Below are positions 1,298 to 33,737 of a stretch of DNA of 64,000 nucleotides, one piece after another. How positions within the stretch are numbered: position 1 is the first letter of the stretch; each line of letters opens with the position of its first letter. The DNA comes from Escherichia phage vB_EcoM_ESCO32: sequence record OM386658.1. The stretch is one strand, 5' to 3'. The translations under genes were made by a program, and so were the position numbers. The notes below the pieces were generated by a model. That model saw only the letters and a program-made list of their open reading frames with translations, was not told where the DNA came from and ran no database searches.

Positions 1298-1660
1298 ATG
1301 CTAAAGTACCTGATGATCACTTGGTTATGTTTACTTTCATTTGCGGGACATGCAACAGAGGGTTTTAAACTTGGTGCTGACGGTACTAAATTCTTTACAT
1401 ATTGGGGTGGGAAAGCCTTATACCAAGAAGAAAAGAATAGCATAGAGTGTACGGTTAGTAAGAAGATTAAATCAGTAGATCAATATGGGGATGCCTATAC
1501 TGGTGTAGGTTTTAACTGTGGAAAAGATTTATTTCTATTTGTTAAGAAGTATTTAGATGTTAACCTTGTATTGCTTATTGTTGTAGATCCTGCTAAGTTT
1601 GAAGAGCGTAAAGCATATCGTGCAGATATGTTCCTAGAATATGATGATAAGGAGAAATAA
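1298..1660 (+). CDS. putative secreted protein with N-terminal signal peptide
   Basis: ATG at 1298 gives MLKYLMITWLCLLSFAGHA..., a signal-peptide-like N-terminus. The track ORF begins further upstream at 1244. Confidence 0.4.
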   Translation: MLKYLMITWLCLLSFAGHATEGFKLGADGTKFFTYWGGKALYQEEKNSIECTVSKKIKSVDQYGDAYTGVGFNCGKDLFLFVKKYLDVNLVLLIVVDPAKFEERKAYRADMFLEYDDKEK

Positions 1661-2011
1661 ATGCTTGATGTAATTATTAATGGTGTTAAATATATTCCTT
1701 ATGTAGAGAAAAGCAATCCTGATGCCTTGGATGTTATGTTTGAGGATTCAGATCTTGGTACTGTCACTGTACGGGAATATTTCCGACAACTACTCTCTAC
1801 GTTATGGAGAGAAGAAGAGTGTTTTAATGGTAAACGTCCATTTGGTAACTCATGCTGGCAATTTGATATGATCCGCGCCTTAATTGAGGCAGGGTATATT
1901 GAAGGTACAGTTGTGTACGATGAAGATGGATATCCAGAAGAGACTGACTACGACAGCAAAGAAGCTAATAAATTTATACAGGGCTTGATTGCACAGATGT
2001 GTTTGGGTTAA
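1661..2011 (+). CDS. hypothetical protein
   Basis: 116 aa ORF starting immediately after the upstream stop. Confidence 0.4.
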   Translation: MLDVIINGVKYIPYVEKSNPDALDVMFEDSDLGTVTVREYFRQLLSTLWREEECFNGKRPFGNSCWQFDMIRALIEAGYIEGTVVYDEDGYPEETDYDSKEANKFIQGLIAQMCLG

Positions 2012-2012
2012 T

Positions 2013-2399
2013 ATGAAAGTATTAAATTTTTACCACTTAGGTAAAGTAATACCTGAAGGTGCAGTTTACATTGGCAGAGCTATGCCTCATATGGGGTTAA
2101 AAGCCTCAAAGTTTGCAAATCCTTTTAAGTTAAAGGATGATGAACCACGAGGGTCAACTATACAAAGATATAAAGAGTGGTTGTGGGAACAAATTCGTTG
2201 TGGTAAAATCACTCTTGAGGATTTGTTAGAATTAGAAGGGAAAGACTTAGTTTGCTTCTGCGCACCTCAACCTTGTCATGGTGATGTGTTGGTAGCAGCG
2301 GTTGCTTGGGCTAGAACAGAGTGGGATAAAAGGCATCCTACTTACACAGATGATTATTGGATTTGGGAGGATATTTATGAAGACTACACAAGAAATTAA
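2013..2399 (+). CDS. DUF4326-like protein
   Basis: VYIGRAMP...KFANPF...YKEWL...GKDLVCFCAPQPCHGDVL matches my memory of the DUF4326 signature (YxGR, NPF, CxC-P-x-CHGDVL). Confidence 0.45.
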   Translation: MKVLNFYHLGKVIPEGAVYIGRAMPHMGLKASKFANPFKLKDDEPRGSTIQRYKEWLWEQIRCGKITLEDLLELEGKDLVCFCAPQPCHGDVLVAAVAWARTEWDKRHPTYTDDYWIWEDIYEDYTRN

Positions 2400-2742
2400 G
2401 GTATTTGATCTGTCAGGCTTAGATATGGAAAAAGCAACCCTGTATCATCACGATAAAGATAATATTACGTACATCTACATCGGAGCAGATAAATATAACA
2501 TTCCTGAAAACTCCCTAGCGGTAATGAAGGAAGGGGATATGCCTTTGCAAGAGAAGATGATTGGTTTTTCCTTTCGTCAAGATGTTAAGATGGATGGTGT
2601 TATTGCTATCTTCCAGGTAGACGAGTTTTATATGGTTACTTTTGTCACACCAAATTTCACCAATATCAATGGGGAAGAGGCAGCAAACGATGTTATTGTT
2701 CTAACGTTGGGTAATGCCTTAAAAGATTTAGAAAACGTTTAA
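2377..2742 (+). CDS. hypothetical protein
   Basis: ATG at 2377 (MKTTQEIKVFDL) preceded by a GA-rich stretch; the track ORF starts upstream at 2302. Confidence 0.4.
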   Translation: MKTTQEIKVFDLSGLDMEKATLYHHDKDNITYIYIGADKYNIPENSLAVMKEGDMPLQEKMIGFSFRQDVKMDGVIAIFQVDEFYMVTFVTPNFTNINGEEAANDVIVLTLGNALKDLENV

Positions 2743-2763
2743 CAAACCAATAAGGAAAATATA

Positions 2764-3279
2764 ATGTTTTTTGATGCTCAATCTCCACTTGTTGACTCTG
2801 TAAGCAGGGCGGTAATATATCCAGACTTTGATGAAAGAGAAATATGGCTTAAGGAACACCACTATGATCCAGAAAATGTCAACTGGTGCAATCTGGATGT
2901 TGGTAAGTATCCGCGAGATAAGGGCATCTTGAAATATTATGCTTGCTATACGGTGGATAACATCTATGAATACTACGTGTTTCGTAGTTTGATTATCCAT
3001 TTAAATAAATTGGGTGCTCTAACAGGGGATTCTCAATTCACTCTAGGCCACTATAAACCATTTAAGAAAGGTGGAGAGCACTTTCCAAGCAATTGGATTA
3101 TACAAACATTAAAAGATAATTCTCGTGCTAGTGATGTTATCCCAGACAAAAAAGAAAAGTGGACATGGCATGAGCAAATGGAGTATATTATACAACATAT
3201 GCCACAACGTGTATTGTATGAGGAAAAGTTGGTCAACCGTTGTGCCGAGTTAATACAGATTGTTAAAGGGTTTTACTAG
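2764..3279 (+). CDS. hypothetical protein
   Basis: 171 aa ORF with aaggaaaatata upstream of the ATG. Confidence 0.4.
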   Translation: MFFDAQSPLVDSVSRAVIYPDFDEREIWLKEHHYDPENVNWCNLDVGKYPRDKGILKYYACYTVDNIYEYYVFRSLIIHLNKLGALTGDSQFTLGHYKPFKKGGEHFPSNWIIQTLKDNSRASDVIPDKKEKWTWHEQMEYIIQHMPQRVLYEEKLVNRCAELIQIVKGFY

Positions 3280-3287
3280 GGGGAAAT

Positions 3288-3764
3288 ATGTCTAAACGTT
3301 TTGGTCGTAATCAAAAAAGAAAGTTAAGTGCTCAACTAGCAGCTTTGCAAAAAGAGGTTAACACTTTACAAAAAAGTGTTTGTGAACTTAAGGAACAAAA
3401 CCAACTTGAAAAAGAGTGTATCCAGCTTACACAGGAAGTTATTGGTGAGTATTTTCCTTCACTAGTTCCTAAGAAGGTGGCTCTTAGGGAAAATCTACCT
3501 TTTACCTTGTCCTTAATGCAAGCAAATGATAGATTCCAAACTGAAACTGATGATTTGATGTTTGCAATGCATCAATTACATGGTTTAGAATATACAGCAC
3601 AAGTGGATAAACTTCGTAACATGTTATATGTGCGGGTAGAAACACCTAAAGGTGAGACAGTAGCTTTTAATTATAATTTCCAACAGCTACCTGATCATAT
3701 TATTGAACAAATTTTAAAACGAGATTTTGTTCCTATGCTTGTTAAACAAATTAAGAGAGGTTGA
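3288..3764 (+). CDS. hypothetical protein with N-terminal coiled-coil-like segment
   Basis: 158 aa; gggggaaat RBS; N-terminal heptad-like sequence (LSAQLAALQKEVNTLQKSVCELKEQNQLEKE). Confidence 0.4.
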   Translation: MSKRFGRNQKRKLSAQLAALQKEVNTLQKSVCELKEQNQLEKECIQLTQEVIGEYFPSLVPKKVALRENLPFTLSLMQANDRFQTETDDLMFAMHQLHGLEYTAQVDKLRNMLYVRVETPKGETVAFNYNFQQLPDHIIEQILKRDFVPMLVKQIKRG

Positions 3765-3765
3765 A

Positions 3766-6540
3766 ATGGCTAAGAAAGAGTTGAGCTTCACTCCGACAGA
3801 AGAGCAAACAGCTATTAAGGAGGCTTTTCCAGACCATCGCTTTTTAACTATCCAAGCTAAATCTGGGTCAGGCAAAACGTCAACACTTTATTTGCTGGCT
3901 AACAGTACAGAAGATCGCATTCTTTACTTAGCTTTCAATAAAAGCATGGCAGAAGAAGCACGACGTAAGATGCCACTAAATGTAGAATGCCGTACATTGC
4001 ATTCTATTTGCTATCAATTCCTGGATCATCGTTTACGTGCAAAACTGTCACGACCAGAAGGACAGTATGTTAACGTTGCAGGTACAGGTAGTGAGATAGC
4101 AAAGAAATTTAAGATTAATAATCTTATTGATAAACGAGGGAAAACACTTTTAACTCGTGCTATGATCGGTTTAATGATCAAGCAAACCGTAGGTAAGTTT
4201 GAATTTTCGGATGATCCTTTTATCAGCCGTAAACATTTTCCTAGTGTACATCTTGCAGATATTAAAAGAAAAGGTATTAACGAACACAAACTAATTACAG
4301 AAGTAGTTAAGTATGCAAAACAATTGTGGCGAGAGCGCATCGATCCTAACACAGACACTTTGATGACGCATGACACCTATGTAAAATTGTTTGAATTATC
4401 TGGTGCTGATCTTGGTTATGATATTATTTTTGGTGATGAATTCCAGGATGTTAACCCTGCATTCTTATCTATTCTGCGAAATGCTAAATCTGCAAAACAA
4501 ATTGTGGTAGTGGGCGATGAATTCCAATGTGTGTCGGAAAACACGGTACTTAATACCGAGAATGGTCAGGTTACAATGAAAGACCTGCAAATCGGTGATA
4601 AGGTAGAGTCTTATTCTAATGGTAAAGTTACATTTAGAAAAGTAACAAATAAGACTTTATCTACACGTACAAAAGGTAGGAATATTATTACTGCCACAGG
4701 TAAAACTTTAGATATGACACATAACCATCGTATTTGGGCTTCATCCTATGTTCTGAAAGATGATCAGATGGTGGTATACCTAATGTGGAGGAAAGATTTA
4801 GGTTTCCGAGTAGGGATCACTAACAAATTCGATGATAAAGAAGGTTTTTCTAAACTGGGGCAACGTACACGTTCTGAAAAAGCACAGAAATTGTGGGTGT
4901 TGGATATTGTTGAAAACCGTGAAGCTGCTATGGAAAAAGAAATGGCATACAGTTTACAATATGGCATTCCTACTTGTGTATTTGAAGCAAGTTCACGCGG
5001 CATTAATCAAGAAAGGATCAATAACATTTTTGAACAATTCGGACAAAACGGTTTTAAACTTTTAGAGGATAAAGATTATCATTTTGCTTATCCACATTGG
5101 CACAGCATCAATTGTGCAGTAGATGAAAGAAAAATGTTAACAGTGACTTTGCGAGCACAAGGTTGTAAAGGAACACAAGTTAGTTTTGAGTGGACAGAAA
5201 GTGAAATGTCAATCTATGCTTCACTCATTGAAGCAGGTGTAAGCGTAAGTGTTGCTAAGTTGGAAGGTCGTTACCGTGTACGTAAATATTTCAATTCTTA
5301 TCGTGAAGCATTGAGTTTTGCACAAAAGATCCTTGAAATAGTGCCGTTTGCATCTTTAAAAGAATGCATGTCCTCTGTGAACACCGCCAAATATACTTTA
5401 ATTCCGGCGGCGGGTTTGTTTAAAGGCATGTCTGTGTTGGTAAAAGATGGTGATACTGTAACGGCAGAAGAAATTGTGGACATTGTAGATAGTGAAGGTA
5501 TCTATTATGATATTGAAGTAGAGGATACTGCTAACTTCTTTGGCAATGAAATTCTTAGCCACAACTGCATTTATCAATTTAGAGGTAGCTCTAATATGAT
5601 GATTGAAACAGCTAAGTATGGGGCAGAGCTTCCATTAACTGCTTGCTTCCGTTTTGGCCCCAAAGTGGCAAACATTGCCAATATGATTTTAAGCGATAAA
5701 GAACCTTTGCGTCATCCTTTGGTTGGTAAAGGCTTTGATACTGTAGTAGGTAGCTACAAATCAGATGTTGTAGACTATACAAAACCTTACACTATCATCT
5801 TTCGCAAGAATTTAACCTTGCTTATGGAGGCAATGGATCGTATTGCAGATGGGGAAGAAATTATTATTAACGTAGACACCAGGGATTTTATCTCTATGGT
5901 AGATAGTGTTAATGCTCTTCGGAGAGGAGATATTGAGAAAGTAAAACATGAAACTGTATTACCTTACGCAGACTGGGATGAATTTGTTGAGTGTGCAGAG
6001 GCTGATCCAGATGCTAAACGCTTGTTAAACATTGTAGTTTCTGGTAAGGCAAACACTATAGCACATACACTTAGAACGCATAGAAATTCTCCTACAGCAA
6101 AAGTCACACTGACTACAGCACATAAGTCTAAAGGTTTGGAGTGGGATCAGGTTATTGTTGCTAATGATTTTCCTTCCAATTATGATAAAAAGACTGGTGA
6201 GTGGGTAGGACTAGAAGAGGCAGAGCGAAACCTACTGTATGTAGCGCATACCCGTTGTGTTAAATGCTTACAATGGAACACAACCGTACAGGAGATTATA
6301 GATATCAACCGTGTTGCAACAGAGAAAGTACCAACAAGCACCACTTTACCGATCAATGGTATTAAACTTGGTGTATTTGGCGCTGGCACATCTCGAAAAG
6401 CTGTAGAAAAATTTGTTGCAGATTCTTTTGATGGTAACTATAATCATGCACAAGCATATGAGAGTTGGCTAGAGGAAGGTGAAGGTGATTTTTTAGGTGA
6501 AATAAATCTTTTACCAGACATAAATAAACTGGTAAACTAA
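3766..6540 (+). CDS. UvrD/Rep-like superfamily I DNA helicase, interrupted by an intein
   Basis: Walker A AKSGSGKTST; motif II GDEFQDV; motif III split as VVVGDEFQ | intein | CIYQFRGSS. Likely start is MAKKEL at 3766 right after the upstream stop. Confidence 0.7.
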   Translation: MAKKELSFTPTEEQTAIKEAFPDHRFLTIQAKSGSGKTSTLYLLANSTEDRILYLAFNKSMAEEARRKMPLNVECRTLHSICYQFLDHRLRAKLSRPEGQYVNVAGTGSEIAKKFKINNLIDKRGKTLLTRAMIGLMIKQTVGKFEFSDDPFISRKHFPSVHLADIKRKGINEHKLITEVVKYAKQLWRERIDPNTDTLMTHDTYVKLFELSGADLGYDIIFGDEFQDVNPAFLSILRNAKSAKQIVVVGDEFQCVSENTVLNTENGQVTMKDLQIGDKVESYSNGKVTFRKVTNKTLSTRTKGRNIITATGKTLDMTHNHRIWASSYVLKDDQMVVYLMWRKDLGFRVGITNKFDDKEGFSKLGQRTRSEKAQKLWVLDIVENREAAMEKEMAYSLQYGIPTCVFEASSRGINQERINNIFEQFGQNGFKLLEDKDYHFAYPHWHSINCAVDERKMLTVTLRAQGCKGTQVSFEWTESEMSIYASLIEAGVSVSVAKLEGRYRVRKYFNSYREALSFAQKILEIVPFASLKECMSSVNTAKYTLIPAAGLFKGMSVLVKDGDTVTAEEIVDIVDSEGIYYDIEVEDTANFFGNEILSHNCIYQFRGSSNMMIETAKYGAELPLTACFRFGPKVANIANMILSDKEPLRHPLVGKGFDTVVGSYKSDVVDYTKPYTIIFRKNLTLLMEAMDRIADGEEIIINVDTRDFISMVDSVNALRRGDIEKVKHETVLPYADWDEFVECAEADPDAKRLLNIVVSGKANTIAHTLRTHRNSPTAKVTLTTAHKSKGLEWDQVIVANDFPSNYDKKTGEWVGLEEAERNLLYVAHTRCVKCLQWNTTVQEIIDINRVATEKVPTSTTLPINGIKLGVFGAGTSRKAVEKFVADSFDGNYNHAQAYESWLEEGEGDFLGEINLLPDINKLVN
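4528..5565 (+). mobile_element. intein (about 346 aa) inside helicase motif III, with a possible degenerate endonuclease core
   Basis: Begins with Cys (CVSENTVLNTENGQVTMKDLQIGDKV, block A-like); block B-like TxxH (MTHNHRIW); ends YYDIEVEDTANFFGNEILSHN followed by +1 Cys. The flanking exteins rejoin into a canonical helicase motif III. Confidence 0.6.
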
Positions 6541-7383: not shown

Positions 7384-7818
7384 ATGTCTATTGTGACACA
7401 AATGAAAGCAGATCGTATCTTAGCACGTACAACCGATAAGGGTGCTTTTGCTTTGTTAACTAATATTATTGGTGAGTTTGACCTTGCTCGTACTCAAAAG
7501 GCAAATCTAAACAAATCAGAAGACGATATTATGATTAACATTGTTAAGATTGGTATTGCACACGCTAAAGAGGAACTAGACTCACTTAAGAAAGTTAATG
7601 CCTCCATTAGCAAATGTGAGCGAGCTATGCGTGATATCACCACTCTGGAAAAATATTTGCCAGAAATGCTATCTGAAGATGATCTTCGAGCTATTGCTGA
7701 AGAATTTGCCTTGACAGGCAAGAAAATGCCAGATATGATGAAACACCTTAAAGCAGAGTATCCGAATCAATATGATGGAAAACTTGCTTCTACCATTGCA
7801 AAAGAAATTTTAAACTAA
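7384..7818 (+). CDS. GatB/YqeY-domain protein
   Basis: LEKYLPEMLSEDDLRAIAEE and MPDMMKHLKAEYPNQYDGKLASTIAKEIL match the conserved C-terminal blocks of YqeY/GatB-C domain proteins as I recall them (..EYLP.QLSEEEL.. and ..MGKVMG....GKADGK.V...VKE.L). Confidence 0.5.
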   Translation: MSIVTQMKADRILARTTDKGAFALLTNIIGEFDLARTQKANLNKSEDDIMINIVKIGIAHAKEELDSLKKVNASISKCERAMRDITTLEKYLPEMLSEDDLRAIAEEFALTGKKMPDMMKHLKAEYPNQYDGKLASTIAKEILN

Positions 7819-7835
7819 TTTAGAAGGAGAACATA

Positions 7836-8786
7836 ATGATTGCATTTTACGCTAATAAACTGGAAGTTAAAAAAGCAGCAGAAGAGATGGGTATCCTGCA
7901 TATTCTTAACGAAGCAATTCACAAGAGTTTTGGTTACACAACTGAAGCAGAAATCAATGATCTGATTCACAGTGTTAATGATTTGTTCTTCTACCCTAAC
8001 TTTCTACAGCAGTTAGATGGTTGTGGATTTGAATATATGGAGCTTCATCCTGAATATACATTTATGGAAGTAACACCTGAAGGTTTTCTGGAGATTATTC
8101 GTACTGAATATCTTGCTAAAGAGGATAAAGAAAAAGATATGGCTGAAAAAGTACAACTGACTGTGCATAATACGTGTTTCCTGGATACTGAGGCCACGGA
8201 AGAAAATATTAATTATCTGCTTTCCGTTTGTAATCCTCGTTGTCCACAACCACATTGGAAAAATGCAGATCATTATCTAATGTATTCAACTGAAGAAAAC
8301 ATTACTTTCTTCGATGAAAACAGTGGTATTAATGGTGCACATAAGAATTCTCCATATAGGAAAGATCGGTTTGTAGTTGATGTAAAAACATTTACTAAAC
8401 TGTTTGATGAGTATTATTCAAAAAATGAAAGTAAGACTGAATCTTCACCAAAACCACGTTTTCGCCGACCGCGTAAACCTGTGCCTACTCGTTCTGTAAG
8501 TTATGTTCGTATCATTTACACTACACAGCAGGTATATACTCTTAAGAACGTAAGTGCTCTTACTGTACAAGAAGATGCAATTAATATTGTGCGCAATAAT
8601 GTTATTACAGAGGGTATTGAGGAAAAGATTATGTCTGTTATCGATCCTAAACTTGTTATGGCAATCATTATTAATGAACCAAAAGGTGTAACAACATTGT
8701 TCCGAAATATTCACGGTACTTGGGAAACTCAAGTTGACGGTTTGACTTCTGACGGTTGTACACGTATTACCAAAAACCTTGACTAA
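7836..8786 (+). CDS. hypothetical protein
   Basis: 316 aa ORF with aaggagaacata RBS. Confidence 0.4.
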   Translation: MIAFYANKLEVKKAAEEMGILHILNEAIHKSFGYTTEAEINDLIHSVNDLFFYPNFLQQLDGCGFEYMELHPEYTFMEVTPEGFLEIIRTEYLAKEDKEKDMAEKVQLTVHNTCFLDTEATEENINYLLSVCNPRCPQPHWKNADHYLMYSTEENITFFDENSGINGAHKNSPYRKDRFVVDVKTFTKLFDEYYSKNESKTESSPKPRFRRPRKPVPTRSVSYVRIIYTTQQVYTLKNVSALTVQEDAINIVRNNVITEGIEEKIMSVIDPKLVMAIIINEPKGVTTLFRNIHGTWETQVDGLTSDGCTRITKNLD

Positions 8787-8833
8787 GATCAAGGACAATC
8801 TTACGAAAAAGATTTAAAATAAAGATCCACCCT

Positions 8834-8862
8834 AAAGCCAGCTTAATGCTGGCTTTTATTTT
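8834..8862 (+). terminator. intrinsic terminator-like hairpin
   Basis: aaagccagc-ttaat-gctggcttt followed by a T run (tttatttt). Confidence 0.5.
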
Positions 8863-8875
8863 CCACGGAGGATTA

Positions 8876-29805: not shown

Positions 29806-32800
29806 ATGGGAGCTTTTACTTTCGACATTGAAAGTAACAACTTGCTTAATGACGAAAGTGTAGATTACTTGGCAAGTCCATATCGTTTAAAAGATAGTTT
29901 TGCAATGCACTGTATTGTGTGCGAAAGTCATGATACTGGAGAGATTATTGCTTTCCATGATGGTGATAAATATCTTTTCGATGGTCGTCCGTATGTTGAG
30001 ACTGACGGAAAGTATGAATACCGACTGGAGGAATATGAGCATTTAGAATATACCCATTTCCCTCTTAAAGATTTTCCTGATTTTGTAAATGGAACAGGTA
30101 AATTTAAAGGTAATTCAAACTATAAAATTACCAAAGTAGTTGGACATAACATCATTAACTTTGACTTACTGGCAATTAAATTATTTTTTAAACTCAACTA
30201 CAGTATTAAGTACAATACTTGGGGTAATAGTAACATTGAAATTTGTGATACTATGATCTTAAGTAAGACACTAAACCCTGATCGCTTCGGTGGTCATAGT
30301 CTGGCAGAGTTATCTAAGAAGGCTGGAGGGGATGTTAAAATTGATTTTAGAAAAAACATTCCTGAAACTGAAAGATTTAAAACATTTGCAGCAGATATGC
30401 TGTATTACTGTATTTACGATAACAAAGCTAACACCGCAGTGTTCCGTTATTTGATGGAAGAGTGGGGTGATTATAATAAGTGGTCTGAACCATTTAACTT
30501 AGAACAACGTGTAGCTGATATTATTACACGTCAAGAGCACCGTGGCTTTGCTTTCAATATGAAACAAGCAGAAGATAATATTCGTGATCTGGATGCTCGA
30601 ATGGAAGCATGTCGTTTAGAGGCAGAACCTGTGCTACCTCCTAAACCTGCTACTAAAGGTTATTTGAAATCATTCATTCCACCTAAACTACAGTTTAAAA
30701 AGAATGGTGAACCTTCAAGTAACATGATAAAGTTTGCAGAGAAACATTCTGGTGAACTTGTACAAAAAGAAGATGGTTGGTGGCTATTTGCATTAGGTAA
30801 AGAGTTTAAACTACCTATTCCAGCAGAAGAACCTATTTGTGATCCTACAGTACCTGCTACTTTAGACGACACTACACATATTAAAAACTGGTTAGTTGGT
30901 TTAGGTTGGAGTCCATCTGAATATAAAGATAAAGATATCACTCTTAAATCTGGCACTAAGATTAAGAAAGATGAAGCACAGATGGAGAAAGCTATTCGTG
31001 ACTATGTTGATCAAACGTTAGCATCTAATTTCTGCCAGGACAGATGTGATCATCTGGAGTGCACACCAGAAACTTTGGAATGGAAACTAAGAGATCGTAT
31101 TGCTAAAGCTAAAGGTCGTGGTGTTAAAGTGCTTACTAACCCTTCCTTTACAAAAGGGCAAGAGAAAGATATTTGTCCTAACTTGGAAGCACTAGGTGAA
31201 AAGTTTCCTTATGCTACGCAGATTGTGCAGTATCTTACGTATAAACACCGTAGGAACTCTATTCTAGGGGGTGGTGCTGATTGGGAAGAAGATGAAGAGG
31301 ATTATGATAAAGGTTATCTGGCAGCAGTAAGGGCTGATGGTCGTATACCAACTCCTGCTGCAACGTGTGATGCAGCTACGTCTCGTATGAAACATAGGTT
31401 AGTAGCAAATATCCCACGTGTAACATCTCTGTACGGATATGAAATGCGTAACTTATTTGGTGTAGAAGTTCCAAAATACTTCCAAATTGGTTATGATTTT
31501 GATTCTCTTGAGGCAAAAATAGAATCACACTACTGTGTACCTATGGATGCACAAGCACTAACCCGTAAAGGTTGGGTTGGTTATCACGATCTACAAGAAG
31601 GGGATGAAATCTTAGGATATAACCCAGAAACAGGACTTAAAGAATGGACTAAAGTAAAAGGTAAGGTCTTCTATAAAAATAGTAAGACGTTTGAGATTAA
31701 AGGAAAATCCCATACTTACCGTGCAACAGCAGATCACCGTTGGTATGTTAATACCCGTAGTAAAGGGAATACTTATGTGCCTAAAGTCAGAACAACTGCC
31801 GAGCTTTGCACAGGAGATAATATTATTTGTAATGCTCCATTTAACATGGAACAAGATCAGGTAAATAGTTTAACTTCTGTTCAACAAGGTAAATGGGATG
31901 TTCCGTGGGTAGAGCGTGTAGTTAATATGTCTCATGCCGAGCGTGTAGCTTTCTTGGAAGGTTTCTTGATTGCAGATGGTTACTGGCATGAACATAAACA
32001 AAAACCTGTTTGGCGTTGGGCGCAGAACCCAGGTGAACTTTTTGAAGCAGCTTTAACTGCCTCGTACCTGGTGCATGGAGGCAATATCTCTGTAGCTTTC
32101 AATACAAAAGAGCAGAAAGTAAAAGTGGCAACATTGGCTAACCGCTCTCACATTCCTGTTCAAAGTTTGACTATTGAAGAGTGGGGTGTAGAGGATGTTT
32201 GGTGTCCACAAACAGAACTTGGTACGTGGGTCATGCGTCAGAAAGACTGCATTACCATCACAGGAAACTGTTGGCGGTACGAGCAGGAACCACACGAATA
32301 TTGTAATGCTCTATTATTGGAAAAACCTAATGATGTTCATACAATGATGGCTCGACGTATTTCTGACACTATTGGTCGTAAGTTTGAACGAAGCCCTGCT
32401 AAATCTGTTAAGTATGGTATTACTTATGGTGCTCAAGCTGCAAAAGTAGCAAAAACTATAGGTAGTGATATGTATACCGGACAGCTTGTATACGATGCTT
32501 TCTGGGAAGCTGCAAAACCTCTTGCGCTTCTTAAAGAACGTCTGCATGACTTTTGGGTTAAAACAGGTAAGAAATACATTCTGGGTATTGATGGTAGGAA
32601 AGTACCTACACGATCTGCACACGCAATACTTAACTCTCTGTTCCAGAGTGGTGGTGTTATTTGTGCAAAAAGAGCAATGGTTATCTACGACGATCTTATC
32701 GAAGAAGAAGGATTAGCTGTTGACTTTTTTGTTGATGACTGGAAAAATAAGTCATTCGTTCAACAAATGATTGCATATCACGATGAAGCACAGCTTGAAG

Positions 32801-33120
32801 TAACTCGTGATCTGGTGCATTTTAAATGGTTCTCTAAAGAATCTTTAGGTTGGACTCAAGTTGATGATCCAGAAGAACAAAAGAAAATTGATAAAGAATG
32901 TTTGGATAAAGTTAATGCCTGGAAAGAAGAGGAAGAGAAACGTACTGGCAAGATTTGGGCTAACGTACATGAATCTCCGAAAGGTGGTTGGTTTACAGCC
33001 TACAGTCGTGCTGGAGAATTAGCATCTATCGCTGTTAATAAAGCTGGTGAGTATTACAATCTTAATGTACCTCTCACTGCTGGTTACGATGTTGGTAACT
33101 CATGGGCCAGTTGTCATTAG
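29806..33120 (+). CDS. family A DNA polymerase (T7 gp5-like) with 3'-5' exonuclease domain, interrupted by an intein
   Basis: Exo I FTFDIESNNL; RFGGHSLAEL; motif A region GYDFDSLEAKIESHY; motif B RSPAKSVKYGITYGAQ; ILGIDGRKVPTRSAHAILNSLFQSGG; C-terminal GYDVGNSWASCH. These parallel T7 gp5 as I recall it. Confidence 0.85.
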   Translation: MGAFTFDIESNNLLNDESVDYLASPYRLKDSFAMHCIVCESHDTGEIIAFHDGDKYLFDGRPYVETDGKYEYRLEEYEHLEYTHFPLKDFPDFVNGTGKFKGNSNYKITKVVGHNIINFDLLAIKLFFKLNYSIKYNTWGNSNIEICDTMILSKTLNPDRFGGHSLAELSKKAGGDVKIDFRKNIPETERFKTFAADMLYYCIYDNKANTAVFRYLMEEWGDYNKWSEPFNLEQRVADIITRQEHRGFAFNMKQAEDNIRDLDARMEACRLEAEPVLPPKPATKGYLKSFIPPKLQFKKNGEPSSNMIKFAEKHSGELVQKEDGWWLFALGKEFKLPIPAEEPICDPTVPATLDDTTHIKNWLVGLGWSPSEYKDKDITLKSGTKIKKDEAQMEKAIRDYVDQTLASNFCQDRCDHLECTPETLEWKLRDRIAKAKGRGVKVLTNPSFTKGQEKDICPNLEALGEKFPYATQIVQYLTYKHRRNSILGGGADWEEDEEDYDKGYLAAVRADGRIPTPAATCDAATSRMKHRLVANIPRVTSLYGYEMRNLFGVEVPKYFQIGYDFDSLEAKIESHYCVPMDAQALTRKGWVGYHDLQEGDEILGYNPETGLKEWTKVKGKVFYKNSKTFEIKGKSHTYRATADHRWYVNTRSKGNTYVPKVRTTAELCTGDNIICNAPFNMEQDQVNSLTSVQQGKWDVPWVERVVNMSHAERVAFLEGFLIADGYWHEHKQKPVWRWAQNPGELFEAALTASYLVHGGNISVAFNTKEQKVKVATLANRSHIPVQSLTIEEWGVEDVWCPQTELGTWVMRQKDCITITGNCWRYEQEPHEYCNALLLEKPNDVHTMMARRISDTIGRKFERSPAKSVKYGITYGAQAAKVAKTIGSDMYTGQLVYDAFWEAAKPLALLKERLHDFWVKTGKKYILGIDGRKVPTRSAHAILNSLFQSGGVICAKRAMVIYDDLIEEEGLAVDFFVDDWKNKSFVQQMIAYHDEAQLEVTRDLVHFKWFSKESLGWTQVDDPEEQKKIDKECLDKVNAWKEEEEKRTGKIWANVHESPKGGWFTAYSRAGELASIAVNKAGEYYNLNVPLTAGYDVGNSWASCH
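31534..32268 (+). mobile_element. intein (about 245 aa) after polymerase motif A, with LAGLIDADG-like motif
   Basis: Starts CVPMDAQALTRKGWVGYHDLQEGDEIL (block A-like); TADHRW (block B TxxH); AFLEGFLIADGYW (LAGLIDADG-like); ends ...CITITGN followed by +1 Cys. The region between motif A and the HTMMA block is about 245 aa longer than the T7 gp5 equivalent. Confidence 0.55.
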
Positions 33121-33149: not shown

Positions 33150-33737
33150 ATGGTATATGGTCATGGTATTTTTGATGGAGATTTTACTGTAAGATCTCCT
33201 AGAGGAACTATGCACCCTGCTTATATGAAATGGATGTCTATGTTGGGGAGGTGTTACTCCCCTTGTCAACAAGAACGTGATCCTTGTTATAATGGGGTGA
33301 CAGTTTGTGAAGAATGGAAGTTGTTCTCCAATTTCTATTCCTGGTTGCAAACTTGGGATGACTGGGAAAACTTAGAACTTGATAAAGATATTATAGGAGG
33401 GAGAGTTTACTCTCCCAATACCTGTCTTTTAGTAACAGGAGATCTTAATAAGTTCTTAGCTTATAGAGTAAGTAAAAGATCTCATGGGACTATGGTGGGA
33501 TGTAGTTACGAGAAAGATCGTAAAAAGTATAAAGCCAACATAAAAGTAGGCGGTCGCATGAAAACGCTGGGACGTTTTAATACTGAAATTGAAGCGCATC
33601 TTTGTTGGTTGAAGGCTAAGGCAGAACAGCTTACAAAATTCTTTGAAACTGAAGATGAAAGAGTTGTTCCACATCTTAAAGCACTATATAATGAAATGCT
33701 TGAGCATGTAGAACAACACAAAGAGTGGACACGATAG
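33150..33737 (+). CDS. AP2-domain DNA-binding protein, putative free-standing homing endonuclease-associated
   Basis: GCSYEKDRKKYKANIKVGGRMKTLGRFNTEIEAHLCWLKA matches the AP2 pattern (G.SY.K...KY.A.I...GK...LG.F.TEEEA..AY) often found in phage HNH/AP2 homing endonucleases; sits directly downstream of the polymerase. Confidence 0.4.
   Translation: MVYGHGIFDGDFTVRSPRGTMHPAYMKWMSMLGRCYSPCQQERDPCYNGVTVCEEWKLFSNFYSWLQTWDDWENLELDKDIIGGRVYSPNTCLLVTGDLNKFLAYRVSKRSHGTMVGCSYEKDRKKYKANIKVGGRMKTLGRFNTEIEAHLCWLKAKAEQLTKFFETEDERVVPHLKALYNEMLEHVEQHKEWTR

Follow-up and report, generated by a model that had tools for sequence, protein, structure and literature searches.

Does the insert that interrupts the family A DNA polymerase gene of Escherichia phage vB_EcoM_ESCO32 remove itself from the protein as an intein and, if so, by which chemistry and with what capacity to move between genomes? 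The insert lies in a 64,000-nucleotide (nt) window of the phage genome (OM386658.1), and all coordinates given for the phage are positions in that window. Over the polymerase region the window matches Justusliebigvirus (phi92-like, Stephanstirmvirinae) myophages of E. coli at 97.8-99.2% identity, with UAB_1, VEcB and cardinal as the nearest matches. The polymerase open reading frame (29806-33120, plus strand, 1104 amino acids (aa)) encloses the insert as one reading frame. We are highly confident that the insert is a genuine, splicing-competent intein, mobile at the DNA level, in a replicative polymerase. This conclusion is based on its presence and absence in closely related phages, on its Hint fold and on the splicing blocks A, B, F and G.

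Boundaries and fold of the polymerase intein

The insert comprises 735 nt in frame and encodes 245 aa, CVPMDAQALT...TADHRW...AFLEGFLIADGYW...ITITGN, followed by Cys. Its limits can be read from sister phages. In ALITA and outra the polymerase gene shares 99% identity with that of the window, with exactly the 735 nt of the insert missing. Their junction reads ...GAATCACACTAC TGT TGGCGGTAC... (ESHY-C-WRYEQ), with 30 of 30 bases identical in each flank, and in fuller context ...ATAGAATCACACTAC TGT TGGCGGTACGAG.... Around the insertion point (marked by a slash here and in the motifs below) the empty ALITA site is ...ATAGAATCACACTACTGT/TGGCGGTACGAGCAGG..., and the predicted uninterrupted target sequence is ...ATAGAATCACACTACTGTTGGCGGTACGAGCAGG.... 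When the gene was searched with megablast, 33 records matched with full coverage; among the matches listed, the 19 other best-ranked records (~99% identity) covered 78% of the gene in two pieces. A TGT codon at each end of the insert leaves a one-codon ambiguity from the alignment alone, and we chose 31534-32268 because intein chemistry needs Cys1 ... Asn245/Cys+1. The original prediction, made from the sequence alone, had placed a 245-aa insertion at these positions, and alignment with intein-free polymerases confirms it to the base. The segment is not conserved in intein-free homologues, as sister alleles of 99% identity do without it.

The same prediction had located the insertion just after polymerase motif A, which also proved correct. 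The intein-less protein aligns to T7 DNA polymerase (gp5; E=1e-20) with no gap over the junction. The first Asp of DFDS (in YDFDS) aligns with T7 D475, the catalytic Asp of motif A, and the Glu of SLE with E480. The junction H-Y/C-W corresponds to T7 H486-F487/M488-A489, 12 residues past the motif A Asp, so that the intein interrupts the conserved helix that follows motif A. The Pfam DNA_pol_A match (aa 839-1002 of the precursor) lies only downstream of the insert. Given the gapless T7 alignment of the spliced sequence and the detection of the family profile in 8097 clusters (see below), the insertion pattern is far beyond chance.

The existence of this polymerase intein is already known. PaulScherrer (MZ501100, BASEL collection) and SD2 (PQ821640), of the same genus, have this element in an identical position, with 98.8% aa identity, and are annotated as having an 'intein-containing DNA polymerase precursor'; the BASEL collection paper states that inteins were annotated (PMC8594841). 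Annotating the window polymerase in the same way is thus routine. The GenBank mat_peptide 'intein' of PaulScherrer (locus 4732-5466) corresponds to window positions 31537-32271 and is therefore shifted by +3 nt; taken literally, it has Val as its first residue and Cys as its last. In the literature searched we found no biochemical or comparative description of the polymerase intein, and according to a 2024 paper none had yet been reported from coliphages.

The AlphaFold (AF2) model of the intein, built on 24 family members, has a predicted local distance difference test score (pLDDT) of 89.2 and a predicted template modelling score of 0.87. The structure prediction thus gives the Hint splicing fold expected of an intein. 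All of the 50 best Foldseek matches of the model in the PDB are inteins, Hedgehog or BIL (Hint) domains; first come the TliVMA intein, which contains an endonuclease (E=2e-8, TMq 0.71), and PI-SceI, and mini-inteins are also among them. The N-lobe is modelled as beta strands, and the family profile matches the PDB sequences of the Spl DnaX (1e-6), NrdJ-1 (1.5e-4) and AceL NrdHF (5e-4) inteins. The motifs quoted in the original prediction (Cys opening block A, TADHRW, a LAGLIDADG-like motif, and ITITGN before Cys) are all present in the translation. The features of the locus are collected in Table 1.

Table 1. Features of the polymerase locus and the other mobile elements considered, with the evidence for each
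Feature	Positions	Strand	Evidence and details
N-extein, family A DNA polymerase	29806..31533	+	576 aa, ends ...GYDFDSLEAKIESHY; open reading frame list, T7 alignment
Intein, Cys1-Asn245	31534..32268	+	exact absence in ALITA/outra; family profile 245 bits; model; MZ501100 annotation
Hint N-lobe, aa 1-104	31534..31845	+	block A C1, V2, L9, T10, G13, W14; invariant alignment columns
Block B, T65-A-D-H68-R-W70	31726..31743	+	Thr B:7, His B:10, Trp B:12
Central inserted domain, aa 105-205	31846..32148	+	linker and one LAGLIDADG half-domain
LAGLIDADG motif, L141-E-G-F-L-I-A-D148-G149	31954..31980	+	acidic-Gly conservation; weak Pfam match
Hint C-lobe, aa 206-245	32149..32268	+	blocks F, G: EDVW-C224-PQTELGTWVMRQKDCITI-T243-G244-N245
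C-extein	32269..33120	+	283 aa and stop; starts with Cys+1 (32269-32271), CWRYEQEPHEY...; motifs B, C
Free-standing HNH-type gene	33150-33737	+	30 nt after polymerase stop; PHROG 953 'HNH endonuclease', E=3e-76
Second intein, 346 aa	4528-5565	+	in UvrD-like helicase open reading frame 3766-6537; GDEFQ/CVSENT...EILSHN/CIYQF

Several results weigh against a splicing, mobile intein. With the insert alone, Pfam Intein_splicing (PF14890) scored 14.7 bits (E=0.028) and missed its cut-off of 35.8, LAGLIDADG_3 (aa 137-169) scored 12.7 bits (E=0.15) and missed its cut-off of 22.5, and scans against NCBIfam and PHROGs gave no match. A single-sequence PDB search of the insert returned only sub-threshold matches, mostly inteins. 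The case for splicing is drawn from the sequence, the model and the relatives of the element, and Asp F:4, His F:13 and His G:6, used by most class 1 inteins, are all missing. The element has a single LAGLIDADG motif, so endonuclease-driven homing stays a proposal. The target site showed no symmetry in a palindrome test (6/11, a score reached by 78% of shuffles); symmetry is expected because a homodimeric enzyme should prefer a symmetric site. Finally, the tract of high identity shared with another genus begins inside the intein (nt ~106), unlike simple homing into an empty site. As for the profile searches that the original prediction had proposed, the outcome is thus divided: Pfam stays below its cut-offs, and the family profile and the structure match inteins. 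The low Pfam score comes from the divergence of the family, for which the profile and structure searches compensate.

Could the insert instead be a permanent accessory domain of the polymerase, like the thioredoxin-binding loop of T7 gp5? The single-sequence Pfam scores below curated thresholds would fit such a domain, and splicing is here predicted from sequence and model. Yet sister phages of 99% identity do without the insert, which carries the Hint fold and all splice-junction residues (C1, T65, H68, N245, C+1), breaks a conserved helix 12 residues past the catalytic Asp, and has homologous inserts in tape measure, portal, terminase, ribonucleotide reductase and other proteins. An accessory domain is therefore excluded for practical purposes. 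That many independent lytic isolates carry the insert in their polymerase gene suggests that the intein of the window splices.

Catalytic signature and splicing chemistry

In order to define the catalytic signature, we used all homologues aligned to the family model (118 + 140 sequences). The near-invariant positions are C1-V2; T65, H68 and W70; V-W-C224-P; and T243-G244-N245 followed by Ser, Thr or Cys. Block B Thr, His and Trp occur in every homologue that covers the block, save for one Leu at the Trp position. Every one of the 152 parsed inteins has Cys1, and 151 have Gly before the terminal Asn. The +1 residue is Ser in 77, Thr in 48 and Cys in 27 of them; the window copy has Cys+1.

These residues do not fit neatly into one splicing class. 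Canonical class 1 inteins have Asp at F:4 and a penultimate His, the latter common and not obligatory; the window intein has Cys224 and Gly244 (G:6) at these positions and no His at F:13. The family as a whole carries the Trp-Cys-Thr (WCT) triplet (Trp70 at B:12, Cys224 at F:4 and Thr243 at G:5) that defines class 3 inteins (PMC2807308, PMC5050341, PMC7891396). We note that Cys224 was assigned to F:4 from its spacing and the register of the motif; a PDB search with a profile restricted to blocks F-G gave no meaningful match, so that the F:4 assignment is unsupported by sequence comparison with solved class 3 inteins. In the definition of Hoffmann et al., class 3 inteins lack an N-terminal Cys and have a Cys at C2:4. 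Class 3 inteins have no Cys, Ser or Thr at position 1, where every complete homologue has Cys1, and have Ser or Thr at +1, where the window copy has Cys. We did not file the element as class 3 because that class lacks a position-1 nucleophile and Cys1 is invariant here. By its sequence, the element is a Cys1 intein bearing the class 3 triplet. Similar cases have been seen before: in 2009, Tori et al. noted Ser1 or Cys1 in three inteins with the WCT triplet, which they did not assign to a class. Neither the signature of Cys1, WCT and Gly nor the single-motif nuclease is mentioned in the texts searched.

For comparison with a class 3 prototype, the MP-Be 'DnaB' intein was taken from Bethlehem gp11 (TerL), where P1, H65, W67, C320, T339-H340-N341 and T+1 are as published. 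Its H-x-W (H65/W67) aligns with the H-x-W of the family. The spacing from Cys to Asn is 21 residues in the window intein (C224-N245), in MP-Be (C320-N341) and in the Msm and Mle DnaB inteins. The similarity is otherwise marginal: MP-Be scores 8.5 bits against the family profile, and its ungapped F-G register score was reached by 324 of 20000 shuffles. In the PDB profile search both classes appear, class 1 with DnaX and NrdJ-1 and class 3 with AceL NrdHF; Msm and Mch DnaB-1 were found by structure only.

The closest relative studied by experiment is the Bethlehem RDF ('gp51') intein (C1...TANHRV...EVWCLRV...HLTGN/S), with a score of 43.8 bits to the family profile. Its block F-G register with the window intein was beaten by none of 20000 shuffles. 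It bears on the penultimate Gly, which the original prediction had described as uncommon and as possibly affecting splicing kinetics. The Gly does differ from the usual His, but it is no oddity of the window copy, being shared by nearly all of the family. Nor does it amount to a defect: the RDF intein splices completely, and splicing is slowed by the Gly316His substitution (Kelley et al. 2016, PMC5050341). Likewise, the class 3 AceL NrdHF intein, in which neither helper histidine is present, splices within minutes (PMC7891396). Since these two inteins splice, lack of the His does not speak against activity.

The following scheme would account for the signature. The 1104-aa precursor would be translated with the intein splitting the helix after motif A; by folding together, its Hint lobes (aa 1-104 and aa 206-245) would bring Tyr(-1)-Cys1 next to Asn245-Cys+1. 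Self-excision and joining of the exteins would yield an 859-aa polymerase, the same as the direct product of the intein-less sisters. The active site would comprise Cys1, Thr65/His68, Trp70, Cys224, Thr243, Gly244, Asn245 and the +1 nucleophile. The most likely route that we infer starts with an N-S acyl shift at Cys1 and acyl transfer to Cys+1, followed by cyclisation of Asn245 without the help of a histidine and an S-N shift. Cys224 may help in this route or act as a relay.

Alternatively, the chemistry may be of the class 3 type, as in the MP-Be DnaB, Msm DnaBi1 and AceL NrdHF inteins: Cys224 would attack the N-terminal junction to form a branched thioester, the acyl group would pass to Cys+1, and Cys1 would be dispensable or regulatory, for instance as a disulfide partner. 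A complete WCT triplet that is invariant across the family speaks for this route, as do the 21-residue spacing, the Ser or Thr at +1 in most family members and the lack of both Asn-cyclisation histidines, which the fast-splicing AceL NrdHF intein shares; the three Ser1/Cys1 WCT inteins of open class offer a precedent. Against it, the invariance of Cys1 argues that this residue is needed, and its absence is what defines class 3; the window copy has Cys+1; the resemblance to the MP-Be prototype is marginal; and the family profile matches class 1 inteins at least equally well. Published work points the same way, as Kelley et al. place the related RDF intein in class 1 (PMC5050341) and a WCT triplet grafted onto a class 1 intein gave no class 3 splicing (PMC7664689). 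We therefore consider class 3-type chemistry possible but doubtful, and regard the route through Cys1 as the likelier one.

The LAGLIDADG half-domain and the mobility of the intein

The central domain of the model contains one helix-strand-strand-helix-strand-strand unit (residues ~124-205), headed by L141EGFLIAD148G149. Modelled alone (91 residues), it has a pLDDT of 85.5, and Foldseek matches it to I-CeuI (top), WhiA, bI3 maturase, PI-SceI, I-MsoI and the I-OnuI family, with TMq of 0.56-0.64, probabilities of ~1.0 and E-values of only 0.02-0.1. Such weak E-values are as expected for 91 residues. The original prediction of a LAGLIDADG-like motif stands to the extent that a domain of this fold is present. 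It has one motif and one unit rather than the two-motif pseudo-dimer, and as a half-enzyme it cannot be assumed to be active. The unit aligns with the second half of the two-motif inteins of phiWec187 (323 aa) and RDF (317 aa), the first half being absent. As judged from the sequences, the missing half is not a private deletion, since 240-259 aa is the modal length in the family. The motif position is [DE]G in 222 of 240 family inteins, and the Q-K..D-H motif of the family reads Q-N..E-L in the window copy.

Comparison with Klebsiella phage KP13-16 shows how the domain has evolved. Synonymous divergence (dS) within the intein is saturated, and nonsynonymous divergence (dN) is 0.058 in the N-lobe, 0.102 in the central domain and 0.095 in the C-lobe, similar to the C-extein (dN 0.081, dS 1.6). 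Only 3 amino-acid changes fall in residues 124-205. The half-domain is under strong purifying selection, as its dN is low at saturated synonymous divergence.

The distribution of the element also suggests mobility. The intein occurs in 34 of ~125 related phage records. In phiWec187, nieznany, AV126 and others of the genus, the motif A site is empty (ESHY-T-WRYDNPDHAY, with Thr for Cys), and motif B is interrupted by a two-motif intein of 32% identity (KSVKYG/CVPVDN...ITLTGN/CTYGAQ) at the position of T7 G527/F528. In phiWec187 (polymerase locus 1626-5174) this intein spans polymerase aa ~632-954 (323 aa). Within the genus, inteins thus occupy one or the other of two sites in the polymerase gene, and none of the matches listed has both inteins. 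As a side observation, four 146-kb records labelled 'Campylobacter phage' (C. jejuni; MG065639, MG065645, MG065656 and MG065689) contain a Stephanstirmvirinae polymerase with the motif B intein; they score identically to E. coli phages, and their host label looks doubtful.

Intein DNA is shared between genera as well. The exteins of the window and of Phapecoctavirus ESCO5 are 72.6% (N) and 78.8% (C) identical (71% and 81% in the adjoining 300 nt). Within the intein, identity is 79% over nt 1-105, 96.3% over nt 106-185 and 99.8% over nt 186-735, and the first mismatch past the intein lies 9 nt beyond the 3' junction. PaulScherrer shows the reverse pattern, with exteins 99% identical to the window and intein nt 186-735 that differ by 6.4%. 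The intein is therefore a mosaic: over nt 106-735 two genera share 94-99.8% identity, and this tract has its right edge at the 3' splice junction. At least two exchanges of intein DNA between genera are indicated by the sequences. The tract resembles the outcome of conversion between inteins more than that of a clean entry into an empty site; recent homing from one genus to the other was rejected as a simple explanation, as the high-identity tract leaves out the first 105 nt of the intein. We read the element as mobile at the DNA level, both within and between Stephanstirmvirinae genera. The active homing-element traffic that had been proposed for this lineage finds support in carriage by about a quarter of the related phages, in the motif B intein and in the sharing of intein DNA between genera.

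A free-standing HNH-type gene follows the polymerase (Table 1); its match spans only positions 198-399 of the 420 of the PHROG 953 profile. ALITA, outra and phiWec187 lack this gene, and among relatives it occurs with and without the intein. Mobilisation of the intein by this gene, at which the first four genomes hinted, was rejected: all four combinations were found, with no strict association. The HNH gene is an independent mobile insertion.

Whether the half-domain contributes to this mobility is less certain. The indirect signs that it may cut the intein-less allele are the presence/absence polymorphism, the identity between genera and the purifying selection acting on it. It may be a mere passenger of a splicing-only intein, a nuclease remnant without cleavage, and the intein would persist because its imprecise loss is barred in an essential gene; patchiness and inter-genus identity would then stem from recombination during co-infection, possibly triggered by other nucleases, for instance that of the neighbouring HNH gene. 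This is a real possibility, falling a little short of even. Several observations fit it: the single motif, with the first half seen in phiWec187 and RDF missing; the Q-N..E-L reading of the family motif; the non-palindromic target; the inter-genus tract that starts within the intein and stops at the 3' junction, resembling gene conversion between inteins; and the HNH-type gene close by. However, a remnant would hardly be expected to accept only 3 aa changes in residues 124-205 at saturated dS, or to keep Asp/Glu-Gly in 222 of 240 relatives. The single-motif form of 240-259 aa is the commonest in the family, the nearest structural neighbour, I-CeuI, is a LAGLIDADG enzyme, the existence of mini-inteins indicates that the domain is not needed for folding, and the HNH gene and the intein occur independently. 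I-CeuI works as a homodimer.

The wider family and its relation to known inteins

The intein belongs to a large family. A protein search returned 9 relatives, which became 118 after searching with their alignment. Of 1.84 billion cluster representatives scanned in full with HMMER, 8097 matched at E<=1e-3, 545 of them at E<=1e-30. Family hosts include PolA motif B (P0007, P0009 and phage phiWec187), NrdA (ribonucleotide reductase) of a Vibrio phage and others, and, in Gordonia phages, the tape measure (Mcklovin), portal (Hail2Pitt) and terminase TerL (GordTnk2). The single-motif class of 240-259 aa accounts for 98 of the 152 parsed inteins, and relatives without the central domain (mini-inteins) exist. 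The three Gordonia inteins carry the full family signature (CV..TxNHRW..WCP) with a T-[GS]-N/[ST] end; the Bethlehem RDF intein (locus 7578-9296) deviates, with a C-S start, Val at B:12 and VWCL. On this sequence evidence the family spans actinophages and coliphages. Its actinophage members have been catalogued as ordinary inteins (bioRxiv 10.1101/2025.01.02.630785). We also observed that most of the metagenomic relatives (P0002-P0097) are inserted in a single small protein, at either of two positions that lie five residues from each other (KFDVYP/C...N/SAYANGWA and WPSAYA/C...N/SGALVKCR), with PF19846 in one member.

Among known inteins, the element resembles the RDF intein in Cys1, in the V-W-C of block F, in T-G-N followed by Ser and in the alignment of the second LAGLIDADG half. 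The RDF intein differs in its 317 aa, two LAGLIDADG motifs, Val at B:12, and another host protein and phage group. With class 3 inteins (MP-Be 'DnaB'/TerL, Msm, Mch DnaB-1 and AceL NrdHF) it shares the WCT triplet, the Cys-to-Asn spacing and phage origin, and class 3 inteins are among the structural matches of the model (6zgq, 6riy and 6bs8); those inteins have no N-terminal nucleophile and usually end in T-H-N/S or T, whereas the window intein has Cys1, Gly at G:6 and Cys+1. The endonuclease domain occupies the same Hint loop as in PI-SceI, PI-PfuI and TliVMA, and these inteins are the best structural matches of the whole model; unlike the 245-aa window intein, these are two-motif pseudo-dimers of 360-540 aa with extra DNA-recognition regions. 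The half-domain itself is organized like I-CeuI, I-MsoI and I-CreI, with one LAGLIDADG helix followed by strand-strand-helix-strand-strand. In contrast to these free-standing or intron-encoded enzymes with near-palindromic sites, it is embedded in an intein, has a shorter core (~85 aa) and a target without symmetry.

One could speculate that these inteins form a large, unnamed 'two-cysteine' phage lineage (Cys1 and WCT, T-G-N, no assisting His) whose half-domain is a homodimeric or nicking homing endonuclease. We find this improbable as a whole, although, if true, a homing endonuclease of a single half-domain would be an architecture not described for inteins. The conserved single-motif LAGLIDADG domain would represent either a new quaternary solution for an intein nuclease or a nuclease domain retained for some other purpose. 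The family also bears on the dispute over whether class 3 inteins descend from class 1 or had a separate origin (Tori & Perler; Beyer et al. 2020, PMC7664689): a large natural family that has the nucleophile of class 1 together with the triplet of class 3, in easily grown coliphages, would make the question testable with four point mutants. Homing crosses are feasible with two sisters of the BASEL collection, PaulScherrer (intein-plus) and EmilieFrey (intein-minus). With the annotation itself routine, the family-level chemistry and the half-nuclease are of moderate residual interest.

The original prediction had also claimed inteins in two replication enzymes of this phage, and the second was indeed found in a UvrD-like helicase (Table 1). 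The helicase reading frame matches Pfam UvrD-helicase, Intein_splicing (32.8 bits) and Hint, and this intein has the canonical His-Asn/Cys end. It scores 18 bits against the profile of the polymerase-intein family, to which it is only distantly related.

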